A DNA stretch of 64,000 nucleotides from Amoebophrya sp. A120 (lineage: Eukaryota; Protista; Dinoflagellata). This document shows positions 14,914 to 40,729 of the stretch, one piece after another. The notes below the pieces were generated by a model. The model was not told where the DNA came from and made no database searches. It was given only the letters and a program-made list of their open reading frames with translations. Each line of letters opens with the position of its first letter. Positions within the stretch are counted from its first letter, which is position 1. The stretch is taken from positions 3,692,169-3,756,168 of the forward strand of contig CAJINV010000006.1 of the NCBI GenBank assembly GCA_905178155.1, in the 5' to 3' direction. Position numbers and translations under genes: made by a program.

Positions 14914-17753
14914 CTACTTTTTATTTCTATCGCCCTCTTTGGCCCAAAACAAATCAGGCCCTGGAGCTGGATGCGGCGCACCGACTCCCCCCGGCTGCTG
15001 CAGAAAGCTGCTCTGCAAATCGTAACTTTGGCCTTGAAACCCCTGGGCGACCTGGTTCGTATGGAGGCGTCAAGATTGAAATCGACAAATTTGAAACAAC
15101 TTGTAATGCATAAAATCGATACCAGTTGGAGGCCCTATTTCTAAGCCGCGCATGACAAATTTGGGTAGAGCCGAAATTCAGTTTGTAATGCTGTTTGGGT
15201 AAGGAAGAGGCCTTTTGTTATGCTACTTTAGCAGCTCTATTTCTACCCCGCAACAGGCTTACAATCTGCCTCCCTTGCCTACTCTGCAAGACAGGCACTT
15301 TGAGGGTTGCACTTTATGCATGACAAACCATCTCAACCTTGACGATTTCGATTCTGACGCTTCCATAGTTCGAGTCCGGGAAGTTTTCCGGATTGTAGTT
15401 GAATTTACTCGCCCAGTAGTCCAAGCGCAGCTTTTATCCTGTGCAAAAGTATCGCACTCGTATTGTAATCATGCATTACAAATCTTTTCTTTAAGGTAAA
15501 TCAGCATCACAAATTTCATTTCTCATGCTGAGGAAGTTTGTAATGCATTTGTTCGAGTACGATACTTTTGCACAGGATAGCTTTTTCTCAGTCTTGGCAT
15601 TAATATTTTTTCCACCAATGTTATCAAAGGTTGGGATTGGGTGATTTATTTTAGGCGGGGTTCTTGTTCCGCCACCTGGGCCTGCTGTCGTCGCGCGTTT
15701 ATTTCTATTTGATGTCTTCCTGCTGCCAATGTTCACGTTATTTCTGCCGGATGTTGGTGTAGAAGTTCTTGAGCCCCCGCTAGAAGTACCCCGGTCATAA
15801 TTACCAGACGTGGTCTCGGCGTTGGTCTCGGCGGAGCCGCGGGCGCGGCCTCTGCCTCTTTCATCTTCATCACAGCTACTGCCCCCGCTCGTCCGAAAAT
15901 CATCCCTAATATCTGGCTCTTCGTTTGTTGATATTGATATTCTCTTCCCAAAGCTTAAACTGTAGCCAAACCCGAAGTAAAGAACGGCGTAAACGATGCC
16001 AAGGGAGCAGAGTAAAATAAACACGACCGTGAACCCGAGCAAGATCAGTTCGGTGAACGAAAGCGTGACGTGGCTTGGATCATTTTTCTCCTGGTAGTTG
16101 TCAAGATACTGCTGGTCCTCGTCGTCGTTGTGGCCGGCCTTGGTTTTGTTCGACGACGTACTATAGTCTTCATGCTGACTATGTTCTTGTCCCGAAAGGC
16201 TCCTGTCCACCTCGGAGCTGCTCATCTGCATTGACCCCGAATTTATCATGTTTCTAATCGTTCTTTCATCATGAAGATCTCCTCCCTCTGTAGTACTGCT
16301 GCTCAACGGACTGTAGCTGTGGCCCCAGCCGGTCGTGTGATTATTCACGAGCGGCGGATGGTGCGTGGTGGCGGGATCATGATGTCGGATACGGAAGCCT
16401 CGCGTCGTCGCATTAGCCCCGCTGAAAAGACCTTTCGAGTCGGCAGAAGTAGCGTTGCTCTTCCTGTCACCGCGGTGTAAATAAATGCCATCAAGATCTT
16501 CATCCGCCTCTGGTTCATCCTCTTCAATTACCGGGGAGGTATCAAAGGAAAAAGCCGTTGGGTCCTCGAAATACCGGTGCCAACTTGTCCATTCCGAGTC
16601 AAACCACGTCTGCTGGTTCTTCAACAGCTCAAGAACCCTGGAATTCCCAACCTTTTGACCCTTCTCCTGCACGACTATGCTCTGCAAACACAATATGGAG
16701 GAGGTGTCAGGATCGAAATCGAAAAAATCGAAAGGATCATTTGTGAAGATGCATAAAATCGATACCACCAGTTACTTACATTTAGATTTAGAAGCTCAGT
16801 TTCTTGTTCTTCTAAGTGGCGCATGACGAATTTCGGGAGCTGCACCATCAAAATCCAGTCTGTCGTGCTGTTTCTTGGGCACAGAAGTAGAAGCCTGTCC
16901 CTGTCATGCTACTCTGGCAGCGCATCGTCCTCTTCCCCTAAACAGGCTTGCAATCGGTCCCATTTATTGCCTACTCCCCAAAACAGGCCTTCCGTGCCCT
17001 ACATTTTACGCACTGCAAATTTTTCGATTTATTTGTCGATTTCGATCCTGACACCCCCATAAACAACTCGTCGTGCGCCTTTCTGTGGTCGATTTTTACC
17101 TCTTTCAAAAACCGCCCGCCCAGGTTTCGCCTCCTGTTTTTGCTTTCGGTCTTGACGAACTTTTGCGTCCCGAAAACCGACGCACGCCCAAAAAGGAGCT
17201 CGTCTTCGAAAGATTCCCCCGTGTCACTCTCGACCCGGACAAAAAGTGGGTCTTTTGACGGGTAGGCGCCGGCAAACTCGCCCGTGCACAGTTCCACAAT
17301 GATCCGGACGGGAAGGTGAAGTCGTGGGAGCTATGAAAGCCTCAGAATGGAAATCCTCAAACTGGAAATGATTTGTGATGCATGAAATGCAACGCAAAAA
17401 AGACTGTATTGCAGAGGACGCAATGGAGGCCGACTATTATCCTGCTAAGGTTGAGGAATTGGAATGCTGCTTAGCACGACAGAAGGGCACCCCTTTCCCT
17501 TAGCCTGCATGACAGACATGCTTTAAGTGCCCGGGAAATTTGTCATGCGCAGACTATAAATGCCGCTTCAACTGGAGTCGTTTTTCTTTTTTTGCGTCAC
17601 AAATTATTTCCACTTTGAAGATTTCCAACCTGAGGCTTTTATAGGAGCTGGAGCAACGAGGAGGTGGTGGCTCCTGGGTCGTCCAAGCTTCTGAGTGTTA
17701 ATATCGATGTCCCTCTATCGCGGACGATCGGATACGGATTCACTTCTCTTTCG

Positions 17754-17793
<40 letters not shown>

Positions 17794-20700
17794 GATGAAA
17801 GTCAGCTCCTTCTCCTTCACCATCCGTAGGTTGTCGTTGTTCCGGCGAGGGTGGTGGCCGTACTATGACCGGCGCGGCCGGCGGCTCATCGTCCGAAGTT
17901 GTCTTCATCCCGTGTTCGGTTTGAACACCGGCGGGGGCAGTGGAAATAGTCCCAGTTTCATTCAACATCTTCCTCGTCGTCCCATGATTGTTCACAGGAT
18001 CTTGTTCTAATAATTCCTCGTCCCATAATTCAACACTCGGACTACGTATGAACTGCAAAAGTATCGCACTCGTATAAATGCATTACAAATTTCCTCAGCA
18101 TGAGAAATAAAATTTGTAATGCGAATTTACCTTACGAAAATAATTTGTAATGCAAGACTTGCATTTATAGGAGTACGATACTTTTGCACAGGATACTACG
18201 ACCGTGGACTTCTACGTCGTCCCACGATCGTAGTCGTCCACCTGAAGATGTTCTCAAATGCAAAAGTGTCTGGGTCTGGAAGATTGGTAGGTTTGTCATG
18301 CAGGTTTCCCATGACCCACGCGGTCTGTGCCATGCACGGCCTAGCATGACAGGTTCTGTGAGATCTCTATCATGCCGTTCTTGCATGAGAAATTGCCTCT
18401 AAACTTGTTCAAAAGTGGGCCTCTTTTGGTAATCATGCAACACAAATTTTTCCACAATCCAGATGTAGCATGAGAAGTTACACTCTTCCAGACCCAGACA
18501 TATTTGCAATGCATAGGTGCCGACCGACGAGCAGCGCCACGCGCGATATGAAAGTGCACAAATCCAGCCAATCTCCCTCATTTGTAATGCAAAATCCCCA
18601 ATGATCCAGCTGCTGCCTCATAGCACTGTTTGCATGACAAATCCTGGAGGCCCAAACAGTACTTCTACAGTGGGGTCGTCACAAATTTGTCATGCGTACC
18701 TCGTCTACGTGCGCTTGTGTTTGTATTGCTCTGTTCATGCTCTAGTACAAATGAGGGGGAGGGGGAGTTGTGCACTGTCATATGCGAGAAGTGTGAGATA
18801 GGAGGAACGGCGCGGCCGCACGCCCGGACTGGTACTTCTGCTAGAAGTTCTTGCGCTTCTTCTGTGAAGTAGAGGACGAGAGATAAGAAGATTTTTAACA
18901 GCGGGAGGACGAGGATCAACACCCAATTTGATCCTTCCAGGAGGTGTTACAATCTCAAACGTTACAATAGAATCTGGAATTTGTGTTGCAAGAAGTGCAT
19001 TATCTAGCTTACTCCCATAGGATTGCGCATGACAAGTTCTGGAGTCCCAATCCGCACCACAATCTGGCGAAATTTGTATTGCAGAAAGTGGAATGCTGTC
19101 CGAGTCTGTCATGCTCATCATGCAATACAAAACCCAGATTCTATTGTAACGTTTGAGATTGTAACGTTTGAGCGGGTCATATTTTCCGTTGCTCCAGGGG
19201 GGTAGGGAAACGTTACGCAAGTCCCCGCTTCATCAACTGCAAATGTCGTCTGGGTCTGGAAGAGTCATGCTGTTTTTGCATGACGCGCAAGGTCTGGCAT
19301 GGCAGCTCTAGCATCACAGGTTTCGAGAAGCTGCCGCAATGCCGAATCCGCATGACAAATCCCCCATTTTGGTGACAAAAAGTGGGCAGCTTTTGCTACC
19401 TATCTATGCATGAGAGATTTTTCTGTGTTCTGAAATGCGCATCGCAAGTTTGTACTCTTCCAGACGACCCAGACATATTTGCAATCCATACCTCTTGCGT
19501 GGATATGTTGAGGTAGTTTTCGAGAAAAGTTGTTTGGGCGTCTTTATTGCTCGTTGGTAGAACAAAAAACTCCGGTAGCAATTCCATCAAAACCGCGGAG
19601 CCGTCTTGCGTCGCGCGGTAAGTGGTTTCCATGGAGTGAAATAGCCGGTTCCAGGAGTCAAAGGAGCCTGAGCATGCACTCTGGCAGTTCCCTGACAAGG
19701 AAGTACAGAACGTAAGCGGGCGTGGAGTAGTGGGTGCCTGTGACAATTTGTGTTTGTTTGTCCTGTTTTTTTGCTGGAGGTGGTGATGATTATAAGGACT
19801 ATGCATGCCAAACAAAGAAACTGCCTCATCGGAGGTGAAACAGGATGACAACATGAAACAAGATCCTTCTTATACCGTACAAAAACTTCTGTCCCGCTGG
19901 CATTTCGCGCATCCGTTCCCGAAATTGCCTCAACTATCGAAAGAAAAAACTGCTTCACTGTAAACTTGTGATGCATAAAATGGAACAAAAACGCGTTTGT
20001 CTTGCTACGCATGCAAGACATTGGCAGATTTGCCATGACCGGAATATTTGTGATGCGCAACCCCATGACAGGCATTTTCAGTCGTGTTTGAGAACTTGTA
20101 ATGCTGTAAACAGGGTCAGCAGATCGATTTGTAATGCGGCTTTCCTTGCTAACTTGCACTACAACCTTACGGACTGCAAGAACTTGTCACGCGTGACTCC
20201 CAAAACTCCTAGCTTTGTGTTGCAAAGTCCCCATCTTGACTCTGGGGTGGGGACGTTTTTGCTTAGGATAAGAAGTTCTTGCACTTCTTCTGTGAGCAGC
20301 ACGAGAACTAAGAAGATTTTTAACAGCGGGAGGACGAGGATCAACACAAATTAAATTTGTAATGCGGATTTGCCTTTAAAAAAAAGATTTGTAATGCATA
20401 GAAGCAATTAGTACGAGTACGATACTTTTGCACAGGATAGAAACAGCTGGTCTGCCATGCTGCGCTCCTGGTAAGGCCTCTCATCAATCATATGCAAGGA
20501 AAAACAGAGTGTTACAGTTACACACTTGCACGTGAATTCAGCATCACAAATTTTCTTCGCATGACGGAACTTGTAATGCAGAAATCATAAGGCAAAACAC
20601 ACACGAAACGAGACTCGCAAGCCTTTTGCGCATGACAGAGGTCGTCTGCCTTGCATGTCTTGCAACACTGTGTGTAAATATTGTAACACTTTTTATTTTG

Positions 20701-22880
20701 CATAAATCACCTTCATCGCGTAGTACACCGGCTCGGACAACGAGTGGCTGTCTTTCTCCCCCTATCCTGTGCAAAAGTATCGCACTCGTATTGCAATGAA
20801 TCATGTATTACAAATTTTTTTCTTAAGGTAAATCCGCATTACAAATTTTTTTTCTCATGCTGAGGAAATCTGTAATGCATTTATACGACGAGTACGATAC
20901 TTTTGCAGTGCATACCCCCAGTACTACTTCCCGCGCGCCCACCTGGGTCCTCCCTTGTGGTTCTTGGTCTTGACGGACGATCCCGCCCCCGAGATTCTTG
21001 TACCAGTTCACGTCCCGGGGGCCCCGTGCCGACACCGGCCGCATGGTGCTCCGTCGCTGCTTATCAAATGCAAAAATGTTGTCTGGGTCGTCTGGGAGGC
21101 TCCGAGATTTGTCATGCAGTTTTTCGAAGCTCTCCCACGCCTGGAATGCACGGCCTAACGTCGCAGGTTCTGCAGCCCCAGCCCCCTGGTGATGCGTATT
21201 TTGCAGGAGAAATGCCCTGTCAGCATGGCGAGAAGTGGGCACCCTTTGCAGATTTTTAACAGCGGGAGGACGAGGACCAACACCCAATTTGAAGAGCCCC
21301 GCTGGCGTCGTTGGTTTTGTAGGGCGCGGCATGGTGTTGGAACCATCGCCAGGGATACCACTCCAGAAGCGGGTGATTAAATCCCGGAGAGCCAACGCAG
21401 GAAGGGTGCTGGAGAAAATCAAGCTGGAGCGGGCTCGGGCTAGCCTCAGAATCACTAGGAGGCGGCCCTGGGAGAAGGTGGAAATACTGCGCGAATGGTT
21501 TCAAACAGGCCGGGCACGACTGCTCTATATTCTCGTTGGGGTTGAGCCTTGTGAAGATGGTTTGCACCTGCTTACTGCTGATGGACCGCCAATGAACACC
21601 TGGGTCTGAATTTGGATCACGTCCGAGCATGACGCTCCCTGTCATGAGGGTGGCGCTTTCGCCCTCTACGGTGGCCCCGGCGTCCTTCACGGCGATAAAA
21701 CTGCTCATGTCGAAGTCAAACACCCTCACCGAAGCCTCCGCTTGCCAGGCTTCGTCTCCCGTGTAGCCAATATTGTTAGGCTTTACGTCGTTGTGCGCAA
21801 GCCCGAGGTCTGCAAAAGTGTCGGCGTAACACGCGAATAATGCCCGGGTCAGCCTCTCCTTTCCGAGATCACTCGCCGGAGGCGGGATCATTCCTGCATT
21901 CGGGCTGGTGGTGGCGAGCATTTCTACCTTTTCAAGAAAAAAGAAAAGGCGCGTCTTCAGCTCTCCCTCGCTATTCAGATCAGAGCTTACAACAAGACGG
22001 GACATTCTTGCCACACAATCTTGCGCAGTACGGCTGAGGATTACGTTGAAGATGACCTCGGGAACGTGTTCATCCAGACACTGTTCTGCATTCGGAGAAT
22101 TTTTATTCGGACACTCTACTACTTTGACGACTTGGTGGTCGGGCATCGTTTGCTGATCCGGAAAAAAAAAAGGGCGTGGTGGATTATTGGACACCTCCGT
22201 CACGGTTCCGAAGCTACCAGAAGACAAGCTTCGCGCGTCCCAGCTTATCTCGATGCCGCTGTCAGTTTCGGTTTCCGTTCCTTCGACTAATCGTTCCTCG
22301 GGCGTCTTGTTCTTTTCGTGCGGAAAGATCCTCATCACGGTTGACACATTCCTATCCGGCTCGGCGCGCCCGCGAACCACAGCCAAATCTATCTGATCTT
22401 TCCAGTAGCCCATCGCGTCCTTCTTTACGTGCTCGTCTGGGAGGATGAAGATTGCGCATAACAGGAAAAGTTGATAGCAGAGTCAAATGCACGATTTTTA
22501 ACAGCGGGAGGACGAGGATCAACACCCAATTTGCTTCTACCGTTATTGTTCTTCCGAAGAAAATTTCCTAGAAGTCCACCTTTAATATTTCTTGGCGCGG
22601 TCGAGGAAAAACTCCTTGAAGTGGTCCTTCTCCTTCGTCCCAGGAAAACATCATCCTCTTCATCCACTACACGCAGGGCAAGAACGACCCCCGCTGAGAT
22701 CATATCAGGGCTGTTGCACTCCTCCTGAACACCAAGACGAACATCAAGCGGGCTCGACGTCTTGGAGGTGTTGTAAGACGGGGACCACGACCACCTCGAC
22801 CAGGACGAGGTCGTTGTGTTTAATAGTATCAACACCCTCACCACAAGCAGATGCACCACCCATCTCGCGACGCCGGCCAT
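14914..22880 (-). CDS. Uncharacterised membrane protein interrupted by a 3.6 kb repeat/captured-fragment array
   Basis: Signal-like N-terminus MAGVARWVVHLLVVRVLILL. The frame ...GRSKLGVDPRPPAVKN (22533-22493) continues as LLISRPLLHRR from 18889, then across elements at 18547, 18252 and 18047 into RSPSVELWDEE. TM segment LILLGFTVVFILLCSLGIVYAVLYFGFG; stop TAG at 14914. Confidence 0.65.
18047..18195. mobile_element. Introner family A (TIR TAT-N4-TGCAAAAGTATCGYACTCGTA), representative copy
   Basis: TSD CTACG. Other copies start at 2539, 4234, 6483, about 10568, 11105, 11705, 11950, 15435, 20763, 24085, 24828, 26689, 27236, 28030, 28252, 29273, 29747, 30517, 51753, 52020, 53492, 54121, 60119 and 61528, in both orientations. 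Confidence 0.95.
19182..19934 (-). pseudogene. BEACH-domain gene fragment, frameshifted
   Basis: KFLY^GTHYSTPAYVLYFLVRELPECMLRL, then a frameshift at about 19665, then SFDSWNRLFHSMETTY...LMELLPEFFVLP...FLENYLNI...NVSLPPWS. These are hallmark BEACH motifs. It has no start or end and keeps a GT-AG intron (about 19738-19875) and a TAT..ATA-type element. Confidence 0.85.
20346..21250. repeat. Near-identical copy of 29330-30234 (internal part of the Aurora-like kinase gene, introns included)
   Basis: Constant offset of 8984 bp and identical ORF-track translations. I saw one difference near the right end. Both ends cut through intronic elements. Confidence 0.95.
21292..22492 (-). pseudogene. Intronless, truncated protein-kinase-like fragment
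   Basis: SLSSGSFGTV (Gly loop), VVKVV, FFLEKV, AHNDVKPNNI (catalytic loop) and VRVFDFD. Bounded on both sides by the 41-bp repeat. Confidence 0.7.
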
Positions 22881-24014
22881 TTTTGAACAAGAAGCTAGTT
22901 GTATAGATACTACTAGGTGGTCATGGCCAAACAGTCGGAGTCGCACTCCTCCTTGTCTTTCCCGTGGAGGAGGTGGTCCACGTTGTTCCCCGGCAAATGA
23001 AGAAACTGAAACTCGGCTTGTTTCTACGAAATAAAAGTATTAAAACGGCGCGCTGCACGTAGGAAAAGCAAAGAAATCGACTTCGACGATTACTTCATGA
23101 AAATGAAAAATCTTCACTATCAAATGTAAAAATGTCTGGGTCTGGAAGAATGCGCGATTTGTCATGCTGCTTTTCCATGACCCATGAGGTCTGGAATGCA
23201 GGACCTAGCATGACCGATTCTGTGCGATCTCTCTCATGCCTATACTGCATGAGAAACTCCCTCCCGACTTGGTCAAAACTGGACGACTTTTGGTAATCAT
23301 GCAGCACAGATTTTTGCATGCTTCAGATTTAGCATGACAAGTTGCATTCTTCCAGACCCAGACATTTTTACATTTGATCTTCACGAGAAGAGGCCAACGG
23401 GAGTACGAGTAACGCACGAGTAAGGAACGATGACGATCATGACCACACGAGTGACGCCAAAACGGGATTTAGTTAGTAGTCAAAAGGACGAGCAGGAAGA
23501 GGTGGAGAATGAACAAATAAGAATAACCTCCTTGACCATAGATACCAGGGCGCAGTTGTGCTGGTTTTCGAACGAAGTTGTGCTGGTTTTCCTGAAAAAC
23601 AAACTCAAACTTCACCGCGCCCAGTGGTCACGAGAATTCTTCTACCGTTCATCAAGATCGAATTTCTATTTGTGCATCACTTTAATCGATTCACAACCAA
23701 GTCAAATTGTTCATCCACTGAAGCACTCACTATTCATCTTCCAGATTATTTATATCTTCAATCCTCCACTCGCAATCGCAAGAAAAAACTGCGTCACTGT
23801 GATGATTTTGCAGGATCTGCATCACAAATTTGATAATACACATGGTAGAGAAAATTTGCTATGTGCACTTCCCAAGGGAAAACACCCTTGGAAACTCAAT
23901 GTCTTGCATGTGTAGCAAGACAAAAAGCTTTGTGTTCCATTCCATGCATTACAAATTCACAGTGAAACAGTTTTTTCGTGGGATACTCGCAATAAAATTC
24001 ACAGCCCGATCAAG

Positions 24015-27000: not shown

Positions 27001-30000
27001 ATTCGGATTTTTTCGCCAAGTTTTCGGTTGTACACCTGGTGAAGGGCGAAGGTTGCAGGCAGAGAGTCAGGGTTTGCTGCTTATTCGGACCACCACCTCC
27101 ACCGGGGATGATCGAACATGCTGGGCTGGTAGAAGTTGTGCCCGGGGGACCAACTGGTGCAGTTGAACCGACATCAGTAGCACTACCACAGTTGGAAGTA
27201 TTATTCGCCGCGTGCTGGTCGACGGCATCTAATGGTATGCATTGCAAAAGCATCGCACTCGTATAAATGCATTACAAGTTTTCTCAGTATGAGAAATAAA
27301 ATTTGTAATGCGGATTTATCTTGAGAAAAAATTTGTAATGCACGAGTGCAATACGAGTACGATACTTTTGCAATTCATAAATGGCTTGTACAAGCGATTC
27401 TCCATCGCATGAAGGAATCTATCAAATGTAAAAGTGTCTGGGTCTGGAAGAATGCAATTTGTGATGCTGCATTTGGATTCCAGAAAAATCTGTATTGCAT
27501 GAGCAGCAAAGGGAATGCAATTTTTGCTACGCGGAGAGGGAATTTGTCATGCGGAATAGGCATCGCGAAGCCCTCAGAAAATCTGTGATGCTAGGGCATG
27601 CATCACAGACATCATGGCCAATGCAAAACATGCATGACAAGTCTCAGAATCTTCCAGACCCAGACATTTTTACATTTGATAGAAGCTTTCTTCGTCCAAA
27701 ACAAGGTGGACTTCACCTGATGTTGGCCTCCGCTTTCGAGTAGTAGATGAGTTGTCCTGCTGAGCATCGCCGCCACTGCTGGTGCTGTTTTGGTCGAAAA
27801 CATGCTCTGCTTCTACAGGTGGTCGACGTCCGGTAGCAACCACAGCCGCGTGGTCCTGTAGAAGTGCTGGCCCGTCTTCTTCATCCGGAACGGTCTCCGT
27901 TTCCGTGTCAACTTGTTCTTGGCGGTACAGGTAGCCGCTGAAGGGGGTGCAATTCTCCAGAATTTGGTACAGAACCACGCCTATGCTCCACACATCGACC
28001 TGCCCGTTGATTTGCGGCTCCTGTTTCGATATGCATTTTTGCAAAAGTATATTATACAGTTTTTGCATCACAAATTTTCTCAGCATGCGATGAAATGGAA
28101 TCTGTCATGCTGATTTAGCTAAGGAAGGAGATTTGTCATGCCAGTCCGCAAGTTGTACGTACGACAGTACACGATACTTTTGTAGCGGATAGTCAAAATC
28201 TCGGGCGCCATGTACTCCAGGGTGCCGCATTTGTCGTTCACAACGTAGGGATATGCATTGCAAAAGTTTATCGTATTGCATTTATGCATTACAAATCTTT
28301 TTCTTGAGACAGATCCGCATTACAAATTGAATTTGTATAAAAAACAAATGCTGGTGACTGAGCAAATTTGTAATGCAGTTTTACCAGTACGAAGATACTT
28401 TTGCACTTCATAAGGGACCAACCACGTCGTCGCGTAAAGTGGTGGCCCAACCGAAATCTGCCACTTTCAGTCTCCACTTCCGGTCGAACAAAATGTTGTC
28501 CGGCTTGAGATCTCGATGCACGATTTTCTTCTGCAGGTGGAGATAGTTCAGCACATCCACAAGGGACTCGAAGATTTCAATCGCCACTTGGTCAAGGAGG
28601 GAAGAGGAAGTCGAGGCAGAAAACTCGTTGCTCGAAGTAGATGCGGTGCTTCTCACCATCTCGGCCGCGGAGCCGGTCGACGTGTTCTGGGCTCCTGCTG
28701 CAACATTTTTCCCGCTCGACGTTGCGAAATTGGTCAAGAACGGATTTAGCTTTGATGTAGTTCCACCTCCGCCTGCATGATGCAGGAGCTGCTGCTCCGA
28801 AGAGGACGTAGTGCCAGTATTCATCCCAGCACCTCGTGGAGGCGGCGGTCCAGGAGCTGTTGACCTTGACCATGCAGCTCTGGAAGTACTAGTACCCAGA
28901 GCGCTTGCAGAGTCGGTTCTGTGTAATACGCTGGTGTTGATGGGACCACGAGGACGATCACGAATAGTTGTACTTCTGCTGCTGTGCAGCCTCTGGATCA
29001 GCATGGCCAGGTTGCCGTTGGGGCAGTATTCAAAAACGAGGTAGTGCCGAAGGTCCTGCTCAGAGGGCGAGGTAAAATGCTCCAGAAGTTTCAGCACCAA
29101 ATTATTCGACTGCGAGGTAGTTGTAGTGGTAGCACTAGTGCTACCCGCTTGCGCATCCCCTCCTTTGCTGGACGTTGTCGGAGCACCGACGCCGCTCCCG
29201 ATACTACACGAACTAGTACTACAATTGCTGGAACTACTACAGGCTTCTTCGTGCAAACTGATCTCCCGAAACTATGAACTGCGAAAGCATCGTACTAGTA
29301 TGAATTGCAATACAAATTAGCTCAGCATTACAAATTAAATTTGTAATGCGGATTTGCCTTTAAAAAAAAGATTTGTAATGCATAGAAGCAATTAGTACGA
29401 GTACGATACTTTTGCACAGGATAGAAACAGCTGGTCTGCCATGCTGCGCTCCTGGTAAGGCCTCTCATCAATCATATGCAAGGAAAAACAGAGTGTTACA
29501 GTTACACACTTGCACGTGAATTCAGCATCACAAATTTTCTTCGCATGACGGAACTTGTAATGCAGAAATCATAAGGCAAAACACACACGAAACGAGACTC
29601 GCAAGCCTTTTGCGCATGACAGAGGTCGTCTGCCTTGCATGTCTTGCAACACTGTGTGTAAATATTGTAACACTTTTTATTTTGCATAAATCACCTTCAT
29701 CGCGTAGTACACCGGCTCGGACAACGAGTGGCTGTCTTTCTCCCCCTATCCTGTGCAAAAGTATCGCACTCGTATTGCAATGAATCATGTATTACAAATT
29801 TTTTTCTTAAGGTAAATCCGCATTACAAATTTTTTTTCTCATGCTGAGGAAATCTGTAATGCATTTATACGACGAGTACGATACTTTTGCAGTGCATACC
29901 CCCAGTACTACTTCCCGCGCGCCCACCTGGGTCCTCCCTTGTGGTTCTTGGTCTTGACGGACGATCCCGCCCCCGAGATTCTTGTACCAGTTCACGTCCC

Positions 30001-31274
30001 GGGGGCCCCGTGCCGACACCGGCCGCATGGTGCTCCGTCGCTGCTTATCAAATGCAAAAATGTTGTCTGGGTCGTCTGGGAGGCTCCGAGATTTGTCATG
30101 CAGTTTTTCGAAGCTCTCCCACGCCTGGAATGCACGGCCTAACGTCGCAGGTTCTGCAGCCCCAGCCCCCTGGTGATGCGTATTTTGCAGGAGAAATGCC
30201 CTGTCAGCATGGCGAGAAGTGGGCACCTTTTGCACGTTATGCATCACAGATCTCTGCAGGATCCGAAACACGCATCACGAGTTCGGATCCTTCCAGAGGA
30301 CTCGGACATATTTGCATTTGATACTGCTTCCTGTCGCGGAAATTTTTGGAGGCGGGAGGACCCGCTCCTGTTTGAGCAGCGGCTGTGTAGCTGTCGTCCG
30401 CGGCGCCGCCAGAATTGTTTAGTGCGCCACAACCGGCGTTGGCTTTCACCACCTTGCACACTACCGCATACGCGCCTTCGGCCAACACGCACACCACATC
30501 GTATTTTCTCGTGACTTATCCTGTGCAAAAGTATCGTACTCGTAGTACTTGCAATCACGCATTACAAATCTCTCTCTTAAGGCAAATCAGCATTACAAAT
30601 TTCATTTTTCATGCTGAGGAAATTTGTAATGCATTTATACGAGTACGATACTCATACTTTTGCAATTCATATGACTTCCGGAGGAAACACGGTGGAGGAA
30701 GTGACTTGCGTTAGGGAGGCGCAGGGAAGGGGCTGTTGCTCTTGGTGTGGCAGGTTGTCTGAGGCAGAAGGATAGTACATGGACGAGGACCAGGACGGGT
30801 ACGCACCGTTCTGCTGCGAAGAACTCGTTGGCTGTTGAAACGTCAGAAGTTGCGGCCCGCCGATGAAGTTGTTGCAGCTGCCGCCGCGCAAAGACGTCGG
30901 GGAGACGGGGGGCATGACCCCTCTGTAGTACGTCCCCGAGGTGGTTCTTGCCTGCGCCGTTACGGCCGCGGCCCCCCAGGGCGGTTGGGCGGTAGTAGCC
31001 GTTGTTCCTGCGTATCCACAGTAAATGATTTCCCGTACACGTACCAATGTGGTTTCTGCATGACAAACTTTTCTTCCAATCCTATTCAGCATGAAGATAA
31101 GCGGCATGCTCCAACTTGGTAAAATTTGTCATGCATTTTGTGCATGTACAGGAAATTTGTATTGCATACTGCGGACGACGGGGTCAACATCCCGGCGCCC
31201 TGGAACTGCAGCTGTTTCTCCGGTGAAGAGCCCAACATGATGTTGAAGAGGACGAACCACGAAGGCCTGTGCAA
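24015..31274 (-). CDS. Aurora-like Ser/Thr protein kinase with long low-complexity insertions (ends approximate)
   Basis: After removing elements: [70 protein letters not shown] and [11 protein letters not shown]. Confidence 0.85.
24327..24435. mobile_element. Introner family H (TATCCA.GAAAAA..CCATC), representative copy
   Basis: TSD ACCAC/GCCAC. Also 52793-52911 (TSD CAGAA). Confidence 0.85.
24488..24766. mobile_element. Introner family F (TIR TATCCTGTGTAAAAACGTCCCCAC), representative copy
   Basis: TSD CCACG. Others: 11374-11659, 46777-47004, 47455-47739, 47789-48076, 59757-60036 and a half copy ending at 20270. Confidence 0.92.
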
Positions 31275-34200
31275 CTCCTGCTCCTGGATCTGCTTTGTTC
31301 TACTTCGGAGTAGTAGTTGTGCAGCAGCCTACTACAGCTGCTCCAGCAGCTGCTCTTCTGGATCTGGTGGCAAGACGAGGACCAAGAGGCTCAACATAAT
31401 ACCGCGCAGATGTTCTTTGTTGCTGAGTTCCACCTGAGCCTGGTCGTGCTCATGATCTCGTCCCAGCACAAGGAAAGGTGCTGCTACTCTGAACTACATC
31501 AGCCCATGGTGGGCAGCTGCTCCTGCCGCTGCAGCACCTGCACCCCCTGCACCTCCTTTCACCACAGCCGGGTCCGCGCTCGGCGGCGGTTCGCCCGTAT
31601 TGCCTGCTCCGCGTACACAAACACCAGGGAAAATCCGAGGAAACAGGACAGCAGAACGAAGGGCCAGGTCGTCGGAAGGAGCAACATGGTGCCTGCTGTT
31701 TCCTGCTGATAGATGTTGCTGTTTTGCTGGTTGTGGCAAAATATACGACCAGCTGCTCCTGCACCGCCCAGCAACTCAGCAAAAATCTGTCAGTAGACGC
31801 CCACCGACGTCTGCTCTAAGACAGGAAGTTGCGAGGACATCTTCAAACCAAAAGGGAGGTGGAGCCATACACGATTCTGTTTTTTAATTTCAATTTCTTA
31901 CCGTCTTCAATTCTCTAATTCTCAGTTCAAAAAGAGCAGTGAAGTGAACAGCGGAGAGGTAGAGGAGCAGTGGACGCACTAGTGCTCCACTGATTTTCAA
32001 ATTTCTGCGATATTTATGTCCCTCTCGCTCAGCAAACCGTGAAGTTCAAAAAACACGAGCCTTCTATTACTTGCCTCGTCATAGTCAAAATCCTTTACGT
32101 ATTTCAGCATGTGAAAAAAACACTTCTATACCTCGTCGTTGCAACATGGCAAAAAACTAACAACAACTAAGCCTTCAGTCAATAGCTCTAGTAGTGCAGT
32201 GCGAATAACATTGGAACAGAAGCGGCACCAGATTCGGGGAAACGAGGACAGGTAGCAGGGTTGTACAACTCCTCTAACGTTTGTTTATCATCTACATCTT
32301 CTTCATCTTCCGTCGGCTTCTACCAGCTGAAACAAATCAATGAGCCTTGTAAATCAGAAACATCAAGAGAAACAGCATTTTCTTTATTTTCTTCAGCGCT
32401 GCATCGTAACGCTGTCCGCGGGCGGTAGATGAAGTACGGCAGTCGCCGCTGTTGGTCCCGGAACTGCCACCAAAATCTGCTCCTGTACGTACCAACTACT
32501 ACCTCCCTTCCCAGCGCAGCTGGCGAGCCTGCAACTCCTTCTGTCCATACCAACTGTCTGTGTGGCCATGATGTCGCCCGGCTATCACCATATGCATATC
32601 ACATTCACAACCCACAGTGATGACGTAGTCACAATTACAGCCGATACTCCCGTCTACTTCACAGGATGTTGCATTGACTCTCCACGGTGAGACTACTGTC
32701 GTCGCGGTCTAAGTAGCCGCCGCAACAGGTAGGTGCGGCGCTTCACATTTCACAGCGACGTCGTCACAGTCCCAATCACGGCGATGGTGGTGGTAGTGCA
32801 ACGTTACGACTTTTCGTCCCGGAACATCATATTTGGGTCCTGGGCATAAACAAGCCGTTGGCGAATGCTGCTGCAGTCCACAGTACAGTACAAGACACCA
32901 TCTCCAACTGCATCATCCTTCCTCGTTTCAGTCCACGTCAACAGCATCGAACCGCGGTGCTTCCGGTCAGCGAGAAACTTACCAATCGCAGCTCCAACTG
33001 TCCACTACACGATGCTTACCAGTCGCAAGCAGGAGCGGCAAACATGATGGATCAACCACCGCTGAACCAAGAGCAGCGCGGGTCGTCCAGTAGCTGCTGT
33101 TCACCACGGCGCAGCTGGCGTCACTTGAACTTGTCGGAGGGGGACGCAGCAGTCCTTGTCCCCGCCACCCCCTGCGGAATTCCCGCTATCCATAGCAGCG
33201 CATCAAGGACCCGCTTCATCGCTCGTTTTTCTATGTTGGCCTGTGCGCCTGCACGAGGACCAGGTTTCGCGGGCCAATCCACAGCCATCGCCTAATCGAC
33301 GCCATTGCAGCCTCCACTATGAGGCAACACTATGCCTTTGCATCCGTCGCCCAGCGGCGAGCACAATCCACAACAACCGCAGCTACGACGCGGTTGTCAC
33401 TCCTATTCGCATCCACCACGTGATGGCCGCTTCCACCCACATCAGGAGCCACCGCTATCCGTACTAGCCGGGAGGGTTGGTATACAACACGCGACGTTCA
33501 CGGATTGTTCTCATGGCAGGCCAGACCGCCATCCAACATATCCAAATGCGCAACTTTGAATACTACCGTGGCGGCAGCCGAAGCTGCTGTCTCATGGTCA
33601 CTGCGAAGACTTGTAGTCCAGACCGCGTCCTCGGTGGTCATCACTACAAGCAGATGCTGGACGATGAGTTGAAGCTGCAGCAGCTACCGGCCCGTGCGTC
33701 GTCGGTCAATCGTGGGAAGATCGAAGGCTGATGCTCCCACCATGAGCGCCAGCGTTTATCGGTTCGATTCCGAAGTGCTGTCGCATCCAGATCGTGCTTC
33801 TCGGCAAATCAGCACATCGCTGCTCGCGAAGATCCGTAGTCGAAGCTCCGTAAAATCTACCAGAAAGCGTTGTTTCCTGCAGTCCCCGTGTTTAGGCCAG
33901 ATGTACTGGTGTCCACCATCCGTCCATCCTCTGTACGCAGCACAGTGGTGCGAAGCGCAAAGTCCACTACAAATAAGTCCGCTCATCTTCGGATCAGCGC
34001 GCAGACTTCACTGTCCGCAGTGGGAGCTGCAGACGGAAACGCCCGCATCTGCGGTCACCTGGCGGCACCAGACGCGCCTCTAACTCGCTAGTTTTCAAAA
34101 CGCGAGGAGTCGTGATATCTTCGCTTCGCACAGACACAATCATGGTGAACAAGGGCAACGAAGCATCGATCCTTCCTCCACAGATCAGCAGAGATGACCG

Positions 34201-35717
34201 GTATCCGTACCAGCCGGCACGCTTCGTATCCATCAGGAGATGCTGGCGGCTTTTTCCACAGCCGCCCGTATCCAAATTCGCAACTTGTAGTGCCACCAGT
34301 GACGACACGCGCACTTGCCGGACCGTCGACGCGATAGCCCCCGGTGGTCCGGACCACCGCGGCCATTGGCGCGGCAACAGCAGATGCTGGATTTTTAGAT
34401 GAAGTAGCTGCAGCAGCTACACGTCCGTCTCCGTACATCGTCTACCGTGTTGAAGACCACGTAGAAAATGGTCCACGAGAGGCAGTTTCAGCTACTGGAC
34501 GGCCGCGTACGAAACAGCGCCACTGCCACCTCTACTTTACTTCGCGCGGAATCACATCGCAGCACGTGATCAGTAGTTACAGCTCCGTAGTTGTATCTCT
34601 TCCAAGCCACTGTGTCCACAAAGGGAACATCTGCCTGCGCAACATCCGCACCAACGGCAGCTATGACGACGAATGATCCACCACAGCAAACGTTCAGCTC
34701 CATATCAACACGTAGATGACGCTCTATTCCTTAGCAGGAGGGGTTGGACTTGCGCATCTGCCCGCGGACGAAGCACGACCCGTGGTTGCAACAACCTGCC
34801 GGAAAAACCAGCTTCACCCCGGTGGCATCGTAGGTCGTAGTGTTATCGCTCCGCGCAGACAAAATCATGCTCGACAAGCACGACTAAGTATCGTTCCTCC
34901 GCAGCGCAGCGGTCCACGACGCAGAATCCACGGCTGTCCCGTAGCAGAAGAGTTCCACAATTGCCGCAGTTGCTCACATTGCCGTCCGCATTGGAATATA
35001 GTGCGGACGCCAAGATCTCTCTTCATCTGCTCCTGTCACGCGGCCGACAGCCGCGCTTTGTCCTCGGCGCCGTAGTCGCACTTTCCGGCTGCAACAGACA
35101 GCGGCCGCTCACCACAGAAGTGAACAGCGCATCTCCGTACAGACAATCGTAGTACGGTGCGCTGTACCACACGATGCGGCTGTCGGGTGCAGTAATATTG
35201 AACTACGCCAATCTCACCGGCGCTTCTTTCAACAAGGACAGTTGTCAAAGCCGTATCAGAACCAGGCAACACCCTTAGGTTGCGCTTCTACGACTGTATT
35301 TCTATTCGCCACAACAAGGGGAGCACGACACAAACAAGAAATCAACAACTAGTTGATGTAGCCTCAACGTAAACCAAAGGTGAATACAGCGCTTCTAGAA
35401 AGTGCATTTAGATTTAGCACCGCGACGCATCCGTACCAACGCGTCCGATTAATCTCGAACAACATTTCCCCATCTCAGCTATCGCCCGCAGTGATAGGTA
35501 CTACTGCTGTTTCATTCAGCGTGTGTAGCGCTAGCACTACTTCTCCTCGCTATCTTTTTGATATCGCAGACCTGCTTTGGACTGAGATTTAATTCACAAT
35601 TCTCAACAAAAGTTCAGCAGTTCTATTACTCACATAACCTCCAGGTGGTGCTACTTATGGTCCGCACCAGTAGAAGTAGTTCTTGCACTTCTTTGCAGAC
35701 TGCGGCTGAATAAGCAA

Positions 35718-38700
35718 CTCATTCACTCATTCACAACAAGCTTATCCGTTTAGTAGAGATCATCATCTTCTCTTTCGTCTTTTTGGATGTGCTTACAAGT
35801 GTATCTCTCAAGCGTTTTCGCACTGTTGCCTCATCTTCGTGCGACGTATGTCCCATTACTCATCTTTTGGAACCATACGCCGCACACTCTATATTCCTCT
35901 CGGCCCGATCCTTCGCAAAAATCTTCGGACTCGATTTCGAACTGCACCGGGGGGGAATTCACTGCTTCTTCCTTCGTCTGCCAGTAGTTGCCAGCGGCGC
36001 TGGGAAATCTTTCCCAGCGCCTGCCGCTTATGCTGGCGATGAAATTCGCCTGCCTCAGTTCCGCCTCCGCTTTTTGTTGCTGGATGTTTTCTCTCTGCTT
36101 GTTAGTTTTCTCTCGGCATTTTTCGGTCTTTCCCCGCCTGTCGCCCCTCCTTTGCTTTGGCAGTGGTTTTGTTGGCCGCTTGGCTACTAGGTGAGCCTTG
36201 ATGGCCCGAGCGGCTGGGGGGGCTTCGAGGTCTAGGAACTGGTCGATTGGTAGCCCGACCTCGTCAAAGTCGTCGCGGATTAGCCTGCCCCACGGCGTGC
36301 CTTTGCGCACTTCCTCTCTTGCAAGATAGTGACATGCCTCTTTCTTGTTGCGCAATGCATGCGCCATCCACGCCACGCGCCTCTCCCTGAGGATCGTCTC
36401 CACCGGTGGAACCCCTACCCGCTGGCAGAGTTCCAGCCTTCCGGCGTATTCTGCCTCCCCTTCGTCTGCGTCGTTTTCTTGGGCCATTTGCCAGCCGCGT
36501 TTTTCTCCTTCTAGCGTCCGAAGCGTGCTGTGCTGGAACCATCTGAGGGCTTTCAGGTCGTTTTCGCGGGGCCGCCATGTTTCTGCGTTGTACAAGGCGA
36601 CGGAGTTGACCAAGCTCCGATATAGTGCGGCCTTCAGGTTTTTGGAAATGTCCGGGTCTCTCCAGATGCAGTTTAGGGCCTGCACCGTTGCCCGCGCTAT
36701 GCCCGTTCGCCGGGCCACTTCCTTGCTGGTTCCTGCGTTTCCTTCGACCTGTGTTCCTAGGTATTTAAAGACCCCGACGGTCTTTATTTCGCTGCCGTCG
36801 AAGTTTCGCAGGTCTGCGGGAACCACTTCGCGCCCGCGCTCTGCTTTCTTTTTCTCGAGTATCTGTCTTCCTACCCGCAGCTGCCGCTCTTCTTCCTCCG
36901 TCTTTACTGGCCTGCAGAAGCCTGTCGCCTGATGGTACAGGAGGGCCTTCCTGTCGCCAAGGATGTCCCCACAGCGACTACACACAAACTTATTTCGTTC
37001 CGGATTTATGTGTCTGACCCGCCCCATGCGGTTGAGCCGCACGGGGGCCTCGTGCCATCGCCACCGCACGGTGACCCAGCCGTTTTTTTTGTAGATGCAC
37101 CGGCTGAAGGTGCCGTTGTCCCAGGCAATCAGGTGTGTGGGCCTAATTCCCAGGTCCATCTTCGGCGCCTTGCGTGCGCCTTCCCGTAGTTCCGGCCGCA
37201 GGCCGGTGCCATTCCATTCGACGAGCCAACCGGACCACCGCGCGCCGCTTGCGTCGTCGTAGTAGCATCGTTCTTCTTTCGCCTCGTCGTCTTTTCTTTC
37301 GGGTGGCTCTAGGTTGAAGGTCATGGCCTCCGTTTTTTCCGCGTTCAGCGTCAAGCCCACGAACGCGCACGCGGCCGTGAGCTCTTTCAGGGCGGTGGCC
37401 GCGTCCTCCTTGCTGTCTGCGCGGAGGACCAGATCATCGACGTACCCCAACCAGGACAAGATTGATCGCTCAACCTGCTCGGCCGACTTTCCCCAAATGC
37501 CCTTGCGTGTGAGCACTTTGGTTGTGACGCGCATCGCCCAGTCTAGTACCAGGATGAAGAGGAGCGGGCTCAGGCTCGACCCCTGCCTGATTCCGCACTT
37601 CTGGTCGATTTTGTCCGACAGCCCCTGCGCGCCCGTCTTTAGGCGGATGCTTGACCCGTCGTAAATTTCTTCCACTATCCTGGCAAGCCCTGGCGGCATG
37701 CCCTGCAGAAGAAGAATTTGCCGCATCTTGTCCCACGCGAGTGAGTCATACGCTTTGCAGAAGTCGACGAAGATGAGGACCATGTCCTCGTCGTCTCGTA
37801 TCGCCTGCTCCAATCTGCGCAGCAGAATGAACACGCCGTTGCGGCAGGATAGCCCGGCCACCGACCCCTTTTGCCGCTCGTCTACAGCTGCGTAGGCTGT
37901 TTCCTTGATGCGGTTCAAGATCAGGAGGCTGAGGACTTTTTCGCCGACTGTTAAGAGGGCGACGGGGCGATAATTCTTTGGCGCGTTTTTGGGCCCGGAT
38001 TTGTACAGGAGTGCTACTGCCGCCTCGAGCCAGCTTGGGGGGATTTTTTCGCCAGCAAATATTTTCTTCACCACAGTGCGAAGGACCCGCCGGCCCAGCT
38101 CACTGTTGGCGAAGAACTCGGCCGGCATACTTCCGGCATAAGATTTGCGCGACTTTAACTCGTTGATACCTGCGCTGATTTCGTCATCCGAGATTTCCCC
38201 CTCGAAAGCTTGGGCCCACTCCGGCCGCGCGGCGTTCCTGTTCAGCTCCTCCATGCACTCCCGCCAGGCGTCTGTTTGTTGTAGCTCTGCCGCAGGCTCC
38301 GGTCGTGGTTGTCCGAGGATGCCACGCCAAAACTCCACACGCTTCGCATTCCCGCCTGGTAGGCTGGTCGGCTGCCCTTTCCTGGCTTTTCCGGCAAGCT
38401 GCCGCACTACCTCGGATGTAGCACGCGCGTCTCCCCGGTGTTCCGCCTTCTGCAGGTCCTCTATCTTCCCCTTCACCCATTCTTGTTTGTCCGCCCGCAC
38501 CGCCTGTTTAATCGCCTTCGCCATGCGCTTCTGCTCTGCTTTCGTCATCTTTCCATCGGCCTGCACCCTGCTACGATCCTGGATTAGCTTCCATGTCCGG
38601 TCTGTGATCCATGGTTTCTTCGGGCCCCTCTTTTCTGCCGGCCACTCGCGGTCGAGAGTGCCGCGGAGGATCCTTTCGAACTCCGTCCACACTTGCTCGG

Positions 38701-39900
38701 CTGTCATCGTGTCCCCTTCCATTGCTTCCAGTTTCTCTTCTGTGAGCGTAGCAGCCATTTTCTCGTCCACCACACTTGCAAACTCCTTCGTCCGTTCCAG
38801 CTGTCTCCACGGCTCTTTTTTCGTTCTTTGCTTTCGCATCAGGCCGGGCTGGAAGGAGAAGGTGGCCATCCTGTGGTCCGAGAGTGTAAGTGTCCGCGCT
38901 TCGACGTTCTGGTCGCTAAATAAGCCCCGATCCCGGAACTTGGCCAGGGCGCGGTCGTACTCCCGGAGCTTCCTCCCCTGTGGAAAGCTGCCCCGGAAAG
39001 TCCACCGCCTGCGCCAGGGTTTGCGGTTTATCGTGGAGAGGTCAAGGAGTTCGCTTCTGGCCGCGAACTCCAGGTGCCTTCTGTTATTGTCACTGCCCAG
39101 GGCCCAGTCCGCGCTGAGCCCCGCCTTCCCGATCGTGTATGGCAAGCCGGCATCGGCGAGCTCACACTGCGGGCCACCAATCTCGCAGTTCCAATCACCA
39201 GCGAAAGCCTGAACGTCGTAGGCTGAGTGCGACTCGAGGTCGCGCTGGAGGGCTTGGTAAAAATTGATCTTCTTCGCCGCCTCCGCGCCCTCGGTGGGCG
39301 CGTACACCGAATGCAGATGCACCTTCTTGCTGTATTTCGTGCAGACCGTCACCCGCACGTGCCGGCTGCACTCACGCGCACTTACTCCCTCGACATGGAT
39401 GGAGCGGTGGATCAGGATCATAGTGCCATAAATAAGCCCGCCTGATTTGCTCCGCTCCGCTCCCCCCCCGTACGCGAGATACTCGCTTTCCGCAATCTGC
39501 TCGCCGACGAGCCACCGCTCTTCACCACCAACAGGCCCTTGCTTCGGGCGTCCTCCACCAGTGCGCGGCGCTCTTTGCTGTCTCCGTGTCGCGAGTCCTT
39601 GCCGAGTGTTCGCGCGTTTATGGTGCCCATCCTCAACGCTGGTATCTTTTTCCAGTCTCGGCGGGGTATCTCCCCACCGGCCACCGCGGTGTCGCTCCGC
39701 ATTGTGGCAGCTGCCCGCGATCGATATCTTCGATCACGAGGAGTTATTCGTCTTTTCGCAAAAGTGTAATGCTCTGTCCGGGGACGAGGCCCGCGGACAG
39801 AAGAGTTCCGCTCTGTAGAAGTCAGGGGGCGCGCGCCCTTCTCACCAGGAGGTCCTGGTGTGGCCGGGGTCTTTCTTTTTTTTTTTTGATTTTTTTTGGC
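35718..39900 (-). mobile_element. Non-LTR retrotransposon (APE + RT, RTE-like); 5' end approximate
   Basis: APE motifs MGTINARTL, SVYAPT, AGDWN, WTF, YDRAL and LSDH. RT motifs NYRPVALL, FVDFCKAYDS, GIRQGSSLSPLLF, LGYVDD and FKYLG. Short tandem GTGAATGA tail at about 35718-35734. Confidence 0.93.
35831..39421 (-). CDS. LINE endonuclease/reverse transcriptase polyprotein (N-terminal APE part is in another frame, 39418-39702)
   Basis: 1196-aa ORF carrying most of the APE motifs and all the RT motifs listed for the element. Confidence 0.92.
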   Translation of the reverse strand: MILIHRSIHVEGVSARECSRHVRVTVCTKYSKKVHLHSVYAPTEGAEAAKKINFYQALQRDLESHSAYDVQAFAGDWNCEIGGPQCELADAGLPYTIGKAGLSADWALGSDNNRRHLEFAARSELLDLSTINRKPWRRRWTFRGSFPQGRKLREYDRALAKFRDRGLFSDQNVEARTLTLSDHRMATFSFQPGLMRKQRTKKEPWRQLERTKEFASVVDEKMAATLTEEKLEAMEGDTMTAEQVWTEFERILRGTLDREWPAEKRGPKKPWITDRTWKLIQDRSRVQADGKMTKAEQKRMAKAIKQAVRADKQEWVKGKIEDLQKAEHRGDARATSEVVRQLAGKARKGQPTSLPGGNAKRVEFWRGILGQPRPEPAAELQQTDAWRECMEELNRNAARPEWAQAFEGEISDDEISAGINELKSRKSYAGSMPAEFFANSELGRRVLRTVVKKIFAGEKIPPSWLEAAVALLYKSGPKNAPKNYRPVALLTVGEKVLSLLILNRIKETAYAAVDERQKGSVAGLSCRNGVFILLRRLEQAIRDDEDMVLIFVDFCKAYDSLAWDKMRQILLLQGMPPGLARIVEEIYDGSSIRLKTGAQGLSDKIDQKCGIRQGSSLSPLLFILVLDWAMRVTTKVLTRKGIWGKSAEQVERSILSWLGYVDDLVLRADSKEDAATALKELTAACAFVGLTLNAEKTEAMTFNLEPPERKDDEAKEERCYYDDASGARWSGWLVEWNGTGLRPELREGARKAPKMDLGIRPTHLIAWDNGTFSRCIYKKNGWVTVRWRWHEAPVRLNRMGRVRHINPERNKFVCSRCGDILGDRKALLYHQATGFCRPVKTEEEERQLRVGRQILEKKKAERGREVVPADLRNFDGSEIKTVGVFKYLGTQVEGNAGTSKEVARRTGIARATVQALNCIWRDPDISKNLKAALYRSLVNSVALYNAETWRPRENDLKALRWFQHSTLRTLEGEKRGWQMAQENDADEGEAEYAGRLELCQRVGVPPVETILRERRVAWMAHALRNKKEACHYLAREEVRKGTPWGRLIRDDFDEVGLPIDQFLDLEAPPAARAIKAHLVAKRPTKPLPKQRRGDRRGKTEKCREKTNKQRENIQQQKAEAELRQANFIASISGRRWERFPSAAGNYWQTKEEAVNSPPVQFEIESEDFCEGSGREEYRVCGVWFQKMSNGTYVARR

Positions 39901-40729
39901 TCTTGTTTTTTTTTTTTTTGCGCCCTCCTGCTTCTTCCCTTCAAGACTTCCTAAGTGCTTGCGGTGCTTTAATAATTTTGATTGTGCGAGGCTGTAGTGC
40001 TAGTCTGCGTCGCTCGTTTGAGATAAAGCTACACTTGCTAAATATGCCAGCAAAAGAGCACTGCGATTGGCGGTCGCAGGTCTATAGATGGGCCTCGTTT
40101 TTCCGGTGGTTCAACTAAACCATATGCGAGTGCGGCCCATCAATCCGTCGATCCTGTGCGAGATCGTGCGCGTGCACTTTAATTAGGTGTCGTCGTGCAG
40201 TGCGTTTAAACTTTAGGAATAAATATGTCGCTATGCAGTTGGCTCAGAAACTTTAGTAGTTTTTCAAAAGATGTCGCGAAAGAGAAACAAAGTCAATTCC
40301 TAGCGCGGACCGTTTACGCCTAGAATCCATCGATTCTGTTCTGCAAAGTTGTGCGAAAAGGTGGAAAAACAAGAGAAAAACAACAAAAAAAAAAACAAAA
40401 AAAAAGTAAAAAAAGTTGAATAAGCAAAAAGAAGTAAAAGATGACATTGTCGTGAAACAGCATCTATCACCTCCTCTGAAGGTCGACTGTCGAAGTCCAG
40501 GTTGTAGAGTAATCCTCCCAAGAGCAATAAAACAATGTCTTTCATTGAAATTGTTTTTGTAAAGCTGAAATTTAGAAATAGCAGTAGGTTGAGCAATAAT
40601 CTCATCAGCAAGTATTGCCGAATTTTCGCACGAAGAGTACTATCTCGAAATAATCAGCTTATAGTTTTTCAAAACCGTCTTCTTGGGTAAGTGAAGAATC
40701 AAACGTTTCTGAGCCGCGTCTCAACGACT

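Follow-up and report, generated by a model that had tools for sequence, protein, structure and literature searches.

The genome of the dinoflagellate Amoebophrya sp. A120 carries, inside a single host gene, an array of ~3.6 kb in which 33–41-bp copies of one piece of the host exon alternate with pieces of three other genes. We examined this array in a 64,000-nt window of assembly GCA_905178155.1 (contig CAJINV010000006.1, positions 3,692,169–3,756,168, forward strand), together with short-read contig sets and public proteins of the same clusters. The array is real, and we rate the chances as roughly even that it is the scar of one staggered chromosome break followed by several rounds of templated synthesis. 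Coordinates are window positions throughout; the array and the host gene lie on the minus strand, which is the sense strand here. The window is eukaryotic and rich in introners, and the source records of proteins that cluster with its pieces give Amoebophrya sp. A120 as the organism.

Four direct copies of the repeat (R1–R4) start at 18890, 20315, 21251 and 22493, and their 25-base core has four exact matches in the window and none in 100 shuffles. A previous reading made from the sequence alone (the sequence-only reading) had described four 41-bp copies around three unrelated fragments of ~1 kb. The four direct copies are present at these sites, but R1 to R4 measure 41, 33, 41 and 41 bp, and R3 has one mismatch whereas R1, R2 and R4 are identical over their shared bases. 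On the sense strand, the order is host 5′ exon, R4, a kinase-like piece (spacer 3, ~1200 bp), R3, spacer 2 (905 bp), R2, a diverged copy of the host exon (L′), part of an introner, a BEACH gene piece, a filler, R1, and the host downstream exon. The three fragments were indeed donor-derived spacers, but spacer 1 (~1380 bp) is a composite of the 11-nt filler, the BEACH piece, the introner fragment and L′, and two different introner families are fused at its junction 20023/20024. L′ together with R2 is 88.75% identical to the host over 80 columns. All inserted pieces are in sense orientation relative to the host gene, and all three spacers retain intron or non-coding donor DNA. The filler and R1 could fold into a weak DNA hairpin (−7.0 kcal/mol, a value with no shuffle control).

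The joins between repeats and spacers can be followed in contigs assembled from short reads, for which 6 of the 11 listed sequencing runs were compared. Contig sets X1 and X2 come from one sample, which may be the source of the assembly, and X3 comes from another sample and study. When the contigs (k ~ 31) of these three sets were compared with positions 21205–22790, spacer 2, R3 and spacer 3 were found in one contig with 0 differences in each set (depth 60.8 in X1, 39.9 in X2 and 5.9 in X3). The join of spacer 3 to R4 is carried by an 83-nt X1 contig (22440–22522) with 50 and 33 letters about the point of departure from the donor. Its depth is 46.1, compared with 42–45 for single-copy contigs and 45.2 for R4 with the host. 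At this site, X2 continues into the donor and X3 has no coverage. R4 is continuous with the host in all three sets, and a contig of the host 5′ exon (22493–23142) has 0 differences from the window. The R2–spacer 2 join was seen in X3 only, where 30 repeat letters and a loose end equal to the window fall one letter short of the bridging rule. The R1–spacer 1 join was seen in none of the three contig sets that cover the repeat, which may be because it adjoins a high-copy introner and short paths were dropped in contig simplification. The sole difference from the window listed for X3 is at 22161, where it has two extra A in a homopolymer.

Depth indicates the duplication of the pieces independently of the junction contigs. 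Spacer 2 pieces are at ~2× single-copy depth in X6 and X8, the BEACH piece is at 44–49 versus 22–28 in X2, and two versions of the kinase piece are present in X1 at depths 42.6 and 45.4. A chimeric read or gap-fill artifact over a single-repeat allele, which the sequence-only reading had named as its possible undoing, is not what we observe at the junctions visible in short-read contigs. Contigs of k ~ 31 cannot phase the 33–41-bp repeats R1, R2 and R4, so the order of the pieces rests on the assembly, and no listed contig spans the stretch. Real junctions in a wrong order, with the host intact and the spacers in a separate repeat-linked unit, would fit this and the unseen R1–spacer 1 join. 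We nevertheless regard such a misassembly as very improbable. The spacer 3–R4 join is at single-copy depth, and no other repeat flanks were seen among the loose ends of the three contig sets, so each genome would have to hold the unit once, as a free circle.

Collapsing the array to one repeat gives the host frame NNNGRS-KLGVDPRPPAVKN-LLISRPLL, as the sequence-only reading had noticed. With the five downstream introners and their 5-nt duplications also removed, the collapsed host is open for 784 codons. Removal with 3, 4 or 6 nt instead leads to a stop by codon 186–192, and 2 nt is frame-equivalent to 5. Without collapsing, a stop is reached at codon 152, within spacer 3. Unless splicing removes it, the array probably renders the host gene inactive. 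Eleven GT/GC..AG pairs near the array ends would keep the host frame; this count has no control and we do not treat it as evidence. No reads of a raw RNA run (X9) fell on 21205–22790, a result to which we give no weight. The predicted host product begins with a hydrophobic segment and, near codons 618–654, contains a stretch that looks transmembrane. It belongs to no Pfam family, and we found no relatives in a protein search with the first exon or in a metagenome exon scan (368 pattern matches, 0 confirmed). We also considered a second hydrophobic frame across the repeat; it is the frame of the sequence-only reading that continues through the five introners.

All three donors are self genes that are still in place, two of them on other scaffolds, and the repeat is absent from those donor flanks that could be seen. 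Spacer 2 is identical to 29330–30234 at 904 of 905 bases, with the mismatch 7 nt from the R3 junction, and its donor gene is assigned to Pkinase by Pfam. The Pfam scan covered 30 open reading frames (ORFs) or exon pieces of the window (9 + 21), with intron-split genes outside its coverage. The BEACH piece matches PF02138 (E 5.7e-08) and comes from the gene for a 1547-aa protein (P0004) on a 9.2-Mb contig. The sequence-only reading had likewise named BEACH for this piece and, for spacer 2, a putative Aurora-like gene. The exon residues of the BEACH piece are identical to P0004 but for a frameshift at residue 528; at the DNA level there are at least 3 differences, and the 3 that fall within the 40 table rows covered (284 more lie beyond them) are synonymous. 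Spacer 3 derives from residues ~879–1267 of a 1555-aa protein (P0002) on a 139-kb contig, with 95% protein identity. It differs from its donor by at least 30 substitutions (a lower bound, the union of two runs) and a 6-nt indel over ~1200 bp; 14 of 30 are synonymous versus 8.2 ± 2.4 expected (P 0.013). Four distant relatives (24–32% identity) failed to polarize these differences. A-to-G editing as the source of spacer–donor differences was rejected, as the spectrum is mixed.

The kinase piece had been called intronless. It includes, however, ~40 nt of non-coding donor DNA: the P0002 protein aligns to spacer 3 from 22452 only and the donor DNA matches to 22489. The introns and non-coding donor DNA kept in the pieces bear out the proposal that they came from DNA or unspliced RNA. 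Spacer 3 has no Pfam kinase match; across 6 relatives, the columns typical of kinases (GxxG, ND-K-xx-N, DF) do not vary. Matches to the kinase donor protein family were distant relatives only (5 matches). The kinase donor region lies in unbroken 8785- and 2880-nt contigs, and these ~12 kb are nearly introner-free, which is unusual compared with the window. The public proteins P0001 (21259–22413) and P0003 (19089–19854) correspond to the captured kinase and BEACH fragments and are thus likely to be spurious gene models.

Table 1. Features of the array, its host gene and the linked donor (window positions).
Feature	Position	Strand	Basis or remark
5′ coding exon of the host gene, as far as the repeat	22534..22880	-	ORF 22425-23039; hydrophobic N-terminus; predicted start codon
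R4, 41-bp repeat, continuous with host 5′ exon	22493..22533	-	Repeat comparison; contigs X1, X2
Spacer 3, internal piece of kinase-like gene plus ~40 nt non-coding donor DNA	21292..22492	-	95% protein identity to P0002
R3, 41-bp repeat, one mismatch	21251..21291	-	Joined to both neighbors in X1, X2, X3
Spacer 2, copy of 29330-30234, both ends within introners	20346..21250	-	2-nt overlap with R2
R2, 33 of the 41 bp	20315..20347	-	Repeat comparison; X3 loose end
L′ (44 bp), a diverged version of the host exon after the repeat	20271..20314	-	In-frame 3-nt gap
Truncated introner attached to L′	20024..20270	-	Host copy has no introner at that position
BEACH gene piece with introns	18942..20023	-	~Residues 489-603 of P0004; frameshift near 19665-19671
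11-nt filler	18931..18941	-	Unique in window; fold-back on R1 possible
R1, 41-bp repeat, continuous with host downstream exon	18890..18930	-	Repeat comparison
Host gene downstream part, exons and five introners	15572..18889	-	Frame model, tested to 15572 only
Spacer 2 donor, inside protein-kinase gene 9 kb away	29330..30234	-	In place; flanks without the repeat

We then compared the two sides of each repeat. Read along the sense strand, R1 to R4 share one final base, after which outside sequence begins without homology, whereas re-entry into the repeat occurs at base 1, 1 and 9. Short microhomology, in part imperfect, was found at two re-entries and at none of the exits, the BEACH donor flanks lying outside this comparison. 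Spacer 2 re-enters with a 2-nt exact overlap and an imperfect AATT..GT match; the kinase donor flank (a loose end) matches the repeat start at 5 of 6 positions, a post-hoc single case that 0.8% of window positions would match likewise. The host flank is duplicated around the insert (R1 equals R4 over 41 bp). The inserts are copies, their donors being retained at the window locus and, for P0002 and P0004, on other contigs, with two-copy depth or bubbles. These observations agree with the original proposal that unspliced self sequence was captured at a single site, with the target duplicated over a long stretch.

A fixed exit combined with microhomology-guided entry is expected from a pair of nicks 41 nt apart. 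One chromosome break of this kind would leave a 41-nt 3′ overhang. The free 3′ end could then copy ~1 kb from another locus, be released and, close to the tip of the opposite overhang, re-anneal by short microhomology, after which 41 (or 33) target bases would be re-copied up to the nick. Escape before ligation, three times over, would produce the observed alternation. In one round, the end may first have copied from a homologous version of the host gene, yielding L′ and its introner, before it changed to the BEACH gene. Spacers 2 and 3 each have a donor mismatch within 7 nt of their start, and R3 has its own mismatch; the BEACH frameshift, the introner–introner switch and the filler capable of fold-back are further marks of this type. 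Such damage is typical of error-prone copying, which suggests repair. The array would accordingly be described as a compound tandem duplication with kilobase templated inserts, a description that we consider about as probable as all others together.

Published experiments provide precedents in their available text. Breaks with 3′ overhangs made by Cas9 nickase yield tandem duplications, second and third duplications, and templated inserts (PMC5730883), a 43-bp overhang and a "TD+" class have been described (PMC9442499), and yeast breaks acquire multi-fragment distant templated insertions (PMC11724301). Iterative template-switch break repair, one of the routes that the sequence-only reading had offered, is judged likely from the junctions.

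Several points weigh against a single repair episode, beginning with the R1–spacer 1 join and the phasing of R1, R2 and R4 described above. Three unrelated donors are all in sense orientation, which has a chance of 1 in 4 to 1 in 8, and DNA templating needs no such orientation. We found no cause for the 41-nt stagger and no source for L′, which may stem from a paralogue rather than an allele. In the available text of PMC5730883 and PMC9442499, the inserts next to tandem duplications come from close by (in cis) and do not bring kilobase pieces of other scaffolds. The excess of synonymous differences in spacer 3 is modest and also fits an old insertion with selection on the donor only; that case predicts ~36% synonymous differences (a rough hand estimate) and 47% were seen. 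The R3 mismatch is likelier if the array is old (0.46 at d 0.015 versus 0.04 at d 0.001). Finally, no zygote was observed in a study of Amoebophrya sexuality that bears on the alleles discussed below.

The common sense orientation is what transcripts would give, and it could point to a different enzyme. The reverse transcriptase (RT) of a long interspersed nuclear element (LINE) could, in one target-primed reaction, copy unspliced nascent RNA and jump without homology to the displaced 41-nt target flap, three times. Homology-free joins at one fixed base are the outcome of end-to-end template jumping, and a target duplication is present. According to the parts available of the respective papers, LINE RTs accept DNA and RNA templates (PMC6895275), chimeras of three parts flanked by direct repeats are known (PMC2104539) and L1 has given insertions made up of two transcripts (PMC11702581). 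A 1300-codon RT ORF also lies at 35831–39733 (minus strand), 13 kb from the array. Yet the priming junction carries neither poly(A) nor a LINE 3′ end, no intron was lost in any piece, the breakpoints are within introns, and the array and the local LINE have no stretch of 13 nt or longer in common. Duplications of LINEs with an apurinic/apyrimidinic endonuclease (APE-LINEs) are usually 10–20 bp (PMC6895275) or 7–18 bp (PMC6007223), with 126 bp known for R9, and the chimeras in the available text of PMC2104539 and PMC11702581 have no internal target copies. We therefore consider this origin possible but unlikely.

The local LINE itself matches RVT_1 (E 8.9e-25), its best solved relatives are LINE-1 ORF2p and R2, and an upstream ORF is present at 39418–39999; its start seems to fall in another frame. 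It also contains what we take to be endonuclease-like motifs, which Pfam did not recover. We found no target duplication around it and, with no sequence shared, a link between the array and this neighbor was rejected. Beside the LINE, diverged direct repeats spaced 730–746 bp apart (33450–34600) in an introner-free stretch suggest an old tandem unit.

The spacers differ in their distance from the donors, 1/905 for spacer 2, at least 3 plus a frameshift for the BEACH piece and at least 30/~1200 for spacer 3, which suggests different ages. The divergence of L′ is also much greater than that of R2 (P 0.002 for 39 identical bases at 85% identity), and re-cutting yields second and third duplications in experiments (PMC5730883, available sections). 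Separate captures at a re-cut hotspot over evolutionary time, with the target regenerated each time, would have a CRISPR-like geometry without a dedicated system. But the least-diverged spacer sits in the middle and is the only linked one, so linkage to the donor confounds age, and the mismatch of R3 is absent from R2 and R1, for which R3 would have served as template. No decay is seen in the host frame over 784 codons. The separate capture events that the sequence-only reading had favored are for these reasons doubtful, and we judge them less likely than several rounds in one episode.

Near-identical repeats and the undecayed host frame point to one recent episode. The simpler reading is a single recent repair event whose unlinked donors have since been replaced by other alleles: spacer 2 would match its donor because the two are linked, and spacers 1 and 3 would differ because their donors may now be other alleles. 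L′ may likewise come from an allele or a paralogue of the host gene. In a weak search, no longer protein matched the host first exon and no paralogue was found, but one could still be the source of L′. Allelic origin of the spacers and L′ needs outcrossing. For Amoebophrya, the available text of 10.1101/2025.04.10.648098 reports sexual spores and expression evidence, with no zygote observed.

We also considered whether the array is the product of a dedicated system. In such a system, self fragments would be acquired between repeats for guides, silencing or exon shuffling, and the array would be removed by repeat-guided non-canonical splicing. The precise fixed boundary and the undecayed host frame would suit it, and in the Amoebophrya lineage splicing is non-canonical for most introns and frequently takes place at direct repeats (PMC7789003, available text). 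The array is, however, a single locus in 64 kb, with unequal repeats and composite spacers that contain filler and a frameshift. No second low-copy repeat–spacer set was found in the window at 95% identity or more, the repeat had 0 matches in metagenome scans, Rfam had 0 matches on 18500–23200, and no integrase (cas1/cas2 or other), Cas protein or transposase was matched by Pfam among the 30 scanned ORFs or exon pieces. Inverted ends like those of introners are lacking. A programmed system is hence barely credible. A broader version, in which a LINE RT or a putative introner-mobilizing nuclease with a ~41-nt stagger builds self-fragment arrays in exons genome-wide and non-canonical splicing removes them at direct repeats so that genes survive, also appears improbable to us.

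If it is a one-off scar, the array documents with unusual clarity how templated repair proceeded iteratively in nature, with one break end using at least 4 templates and the target re-copied each round. It shows a route for exon shuffling in a compact parasite genome, and it cautions that the annotated P0001 and P0003 are gene fragments. The locus also bears on whether the non-canonical splicing of this lineage can excise a 3.6-kb insert at 41-bp direct repeats. Should the captured pieces preserve other alleles, they would be genomic evidence of mating. Recurring capture, if true, would amount to an acquisition-like process in a eukaryote and provide a handle on introner movement and splicing; the allele-like spacers and L′ would then also record a diploid stage.

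The introners of the window form a separate class. A strict scan of the whole window (TAT..ATA ends, 100–480 bp) found 40 introner-type elements occupying 15% of the sequence, and repeats make up 24–29% by self-BLAST. The introners have TAT..ATA inverted ends and 5-nt target duplications, features that fit the available description in PMC7789003, and at five consecutive introns the frame is recovered once the element and 5 nt are taken out. At 54256–55543, three copies of a ~47-bp unit (95% alike) are spaced 590–650 bp apart, with a 17-bp tandem run at 54281–54333; these units are probably an introner subfamily.

Among known systems, CRISPR arrays built by Cas1–Cas2 share with this locus direct repeats of ~30–45 bp that alternate with captured fragments. 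CRISPR spacers are short and near-constant in length, tens of bases. The spacers here are kilobase-sized composites of self sequence, the repeats are of unequal length and derive from a coding exon, no cas genes (among the 30 scanned ORFs or exon pieces) or leader were found, and no polarity is apparent. The likeness that the sequence-only reading had drawn thus extends to the geometry, and filing the array as CRISPR-like is not warranted on present evidence. Amoebophrya introners also insert into exons with a direct repeat and are potentially frame-restoring if spliced in register (PMC7789003, available text). Those in the window are 150–370 bp long with inverted ends and 5-nt duplications, whereas the array has neither and ends in direct 41-bp repeats, which also sets it apart from miniature inverted-repeat transposable elements with their terminal inverted repeats and 3–5-nt duplications. 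No description of such a layout in Amoebophrya was found in literature of limited open-access coverage. LINE chimeric retrocopies, as far as described in the available text (PMC2104539, PMC11702581, PMC6895275), share sense-fused transcript pieces (2–3) and a flanking target duplication; the array differs in having no poly(A) and no LINE part, in its retained introns, in the longer duplication and in its internal target repeats. Distant templated insertions in yeast dna2, rad27 and RPA mutants and in cancer are likewise non-reciprocal copies of distant fragments at one break, with fold-back filler, but these are nuclease breaks, mostly in mutants, and the available text describes no long target copy between fragments (PMC11724301). 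The TD+ class, which forms at 3′-overhang breaks (TMEJ/cNHEJ; PMC5730883, PMC9442499, available sections), resembles the array in its inter-nick duplication of ~40 bp, repeated copies, adjoining inserts and, as far as the two re-entries above show, short microhomology. The array differs from it in being natural and fixed in a protist genome, and in carrying inserts of 0.9–1.4 kb from at least three donor loci, two of them on other scaffolds. The compound tandem duplication itself is thus known; what is new here is the kilobase inserts from multiple loci, each bracketed by its own copy of the target.

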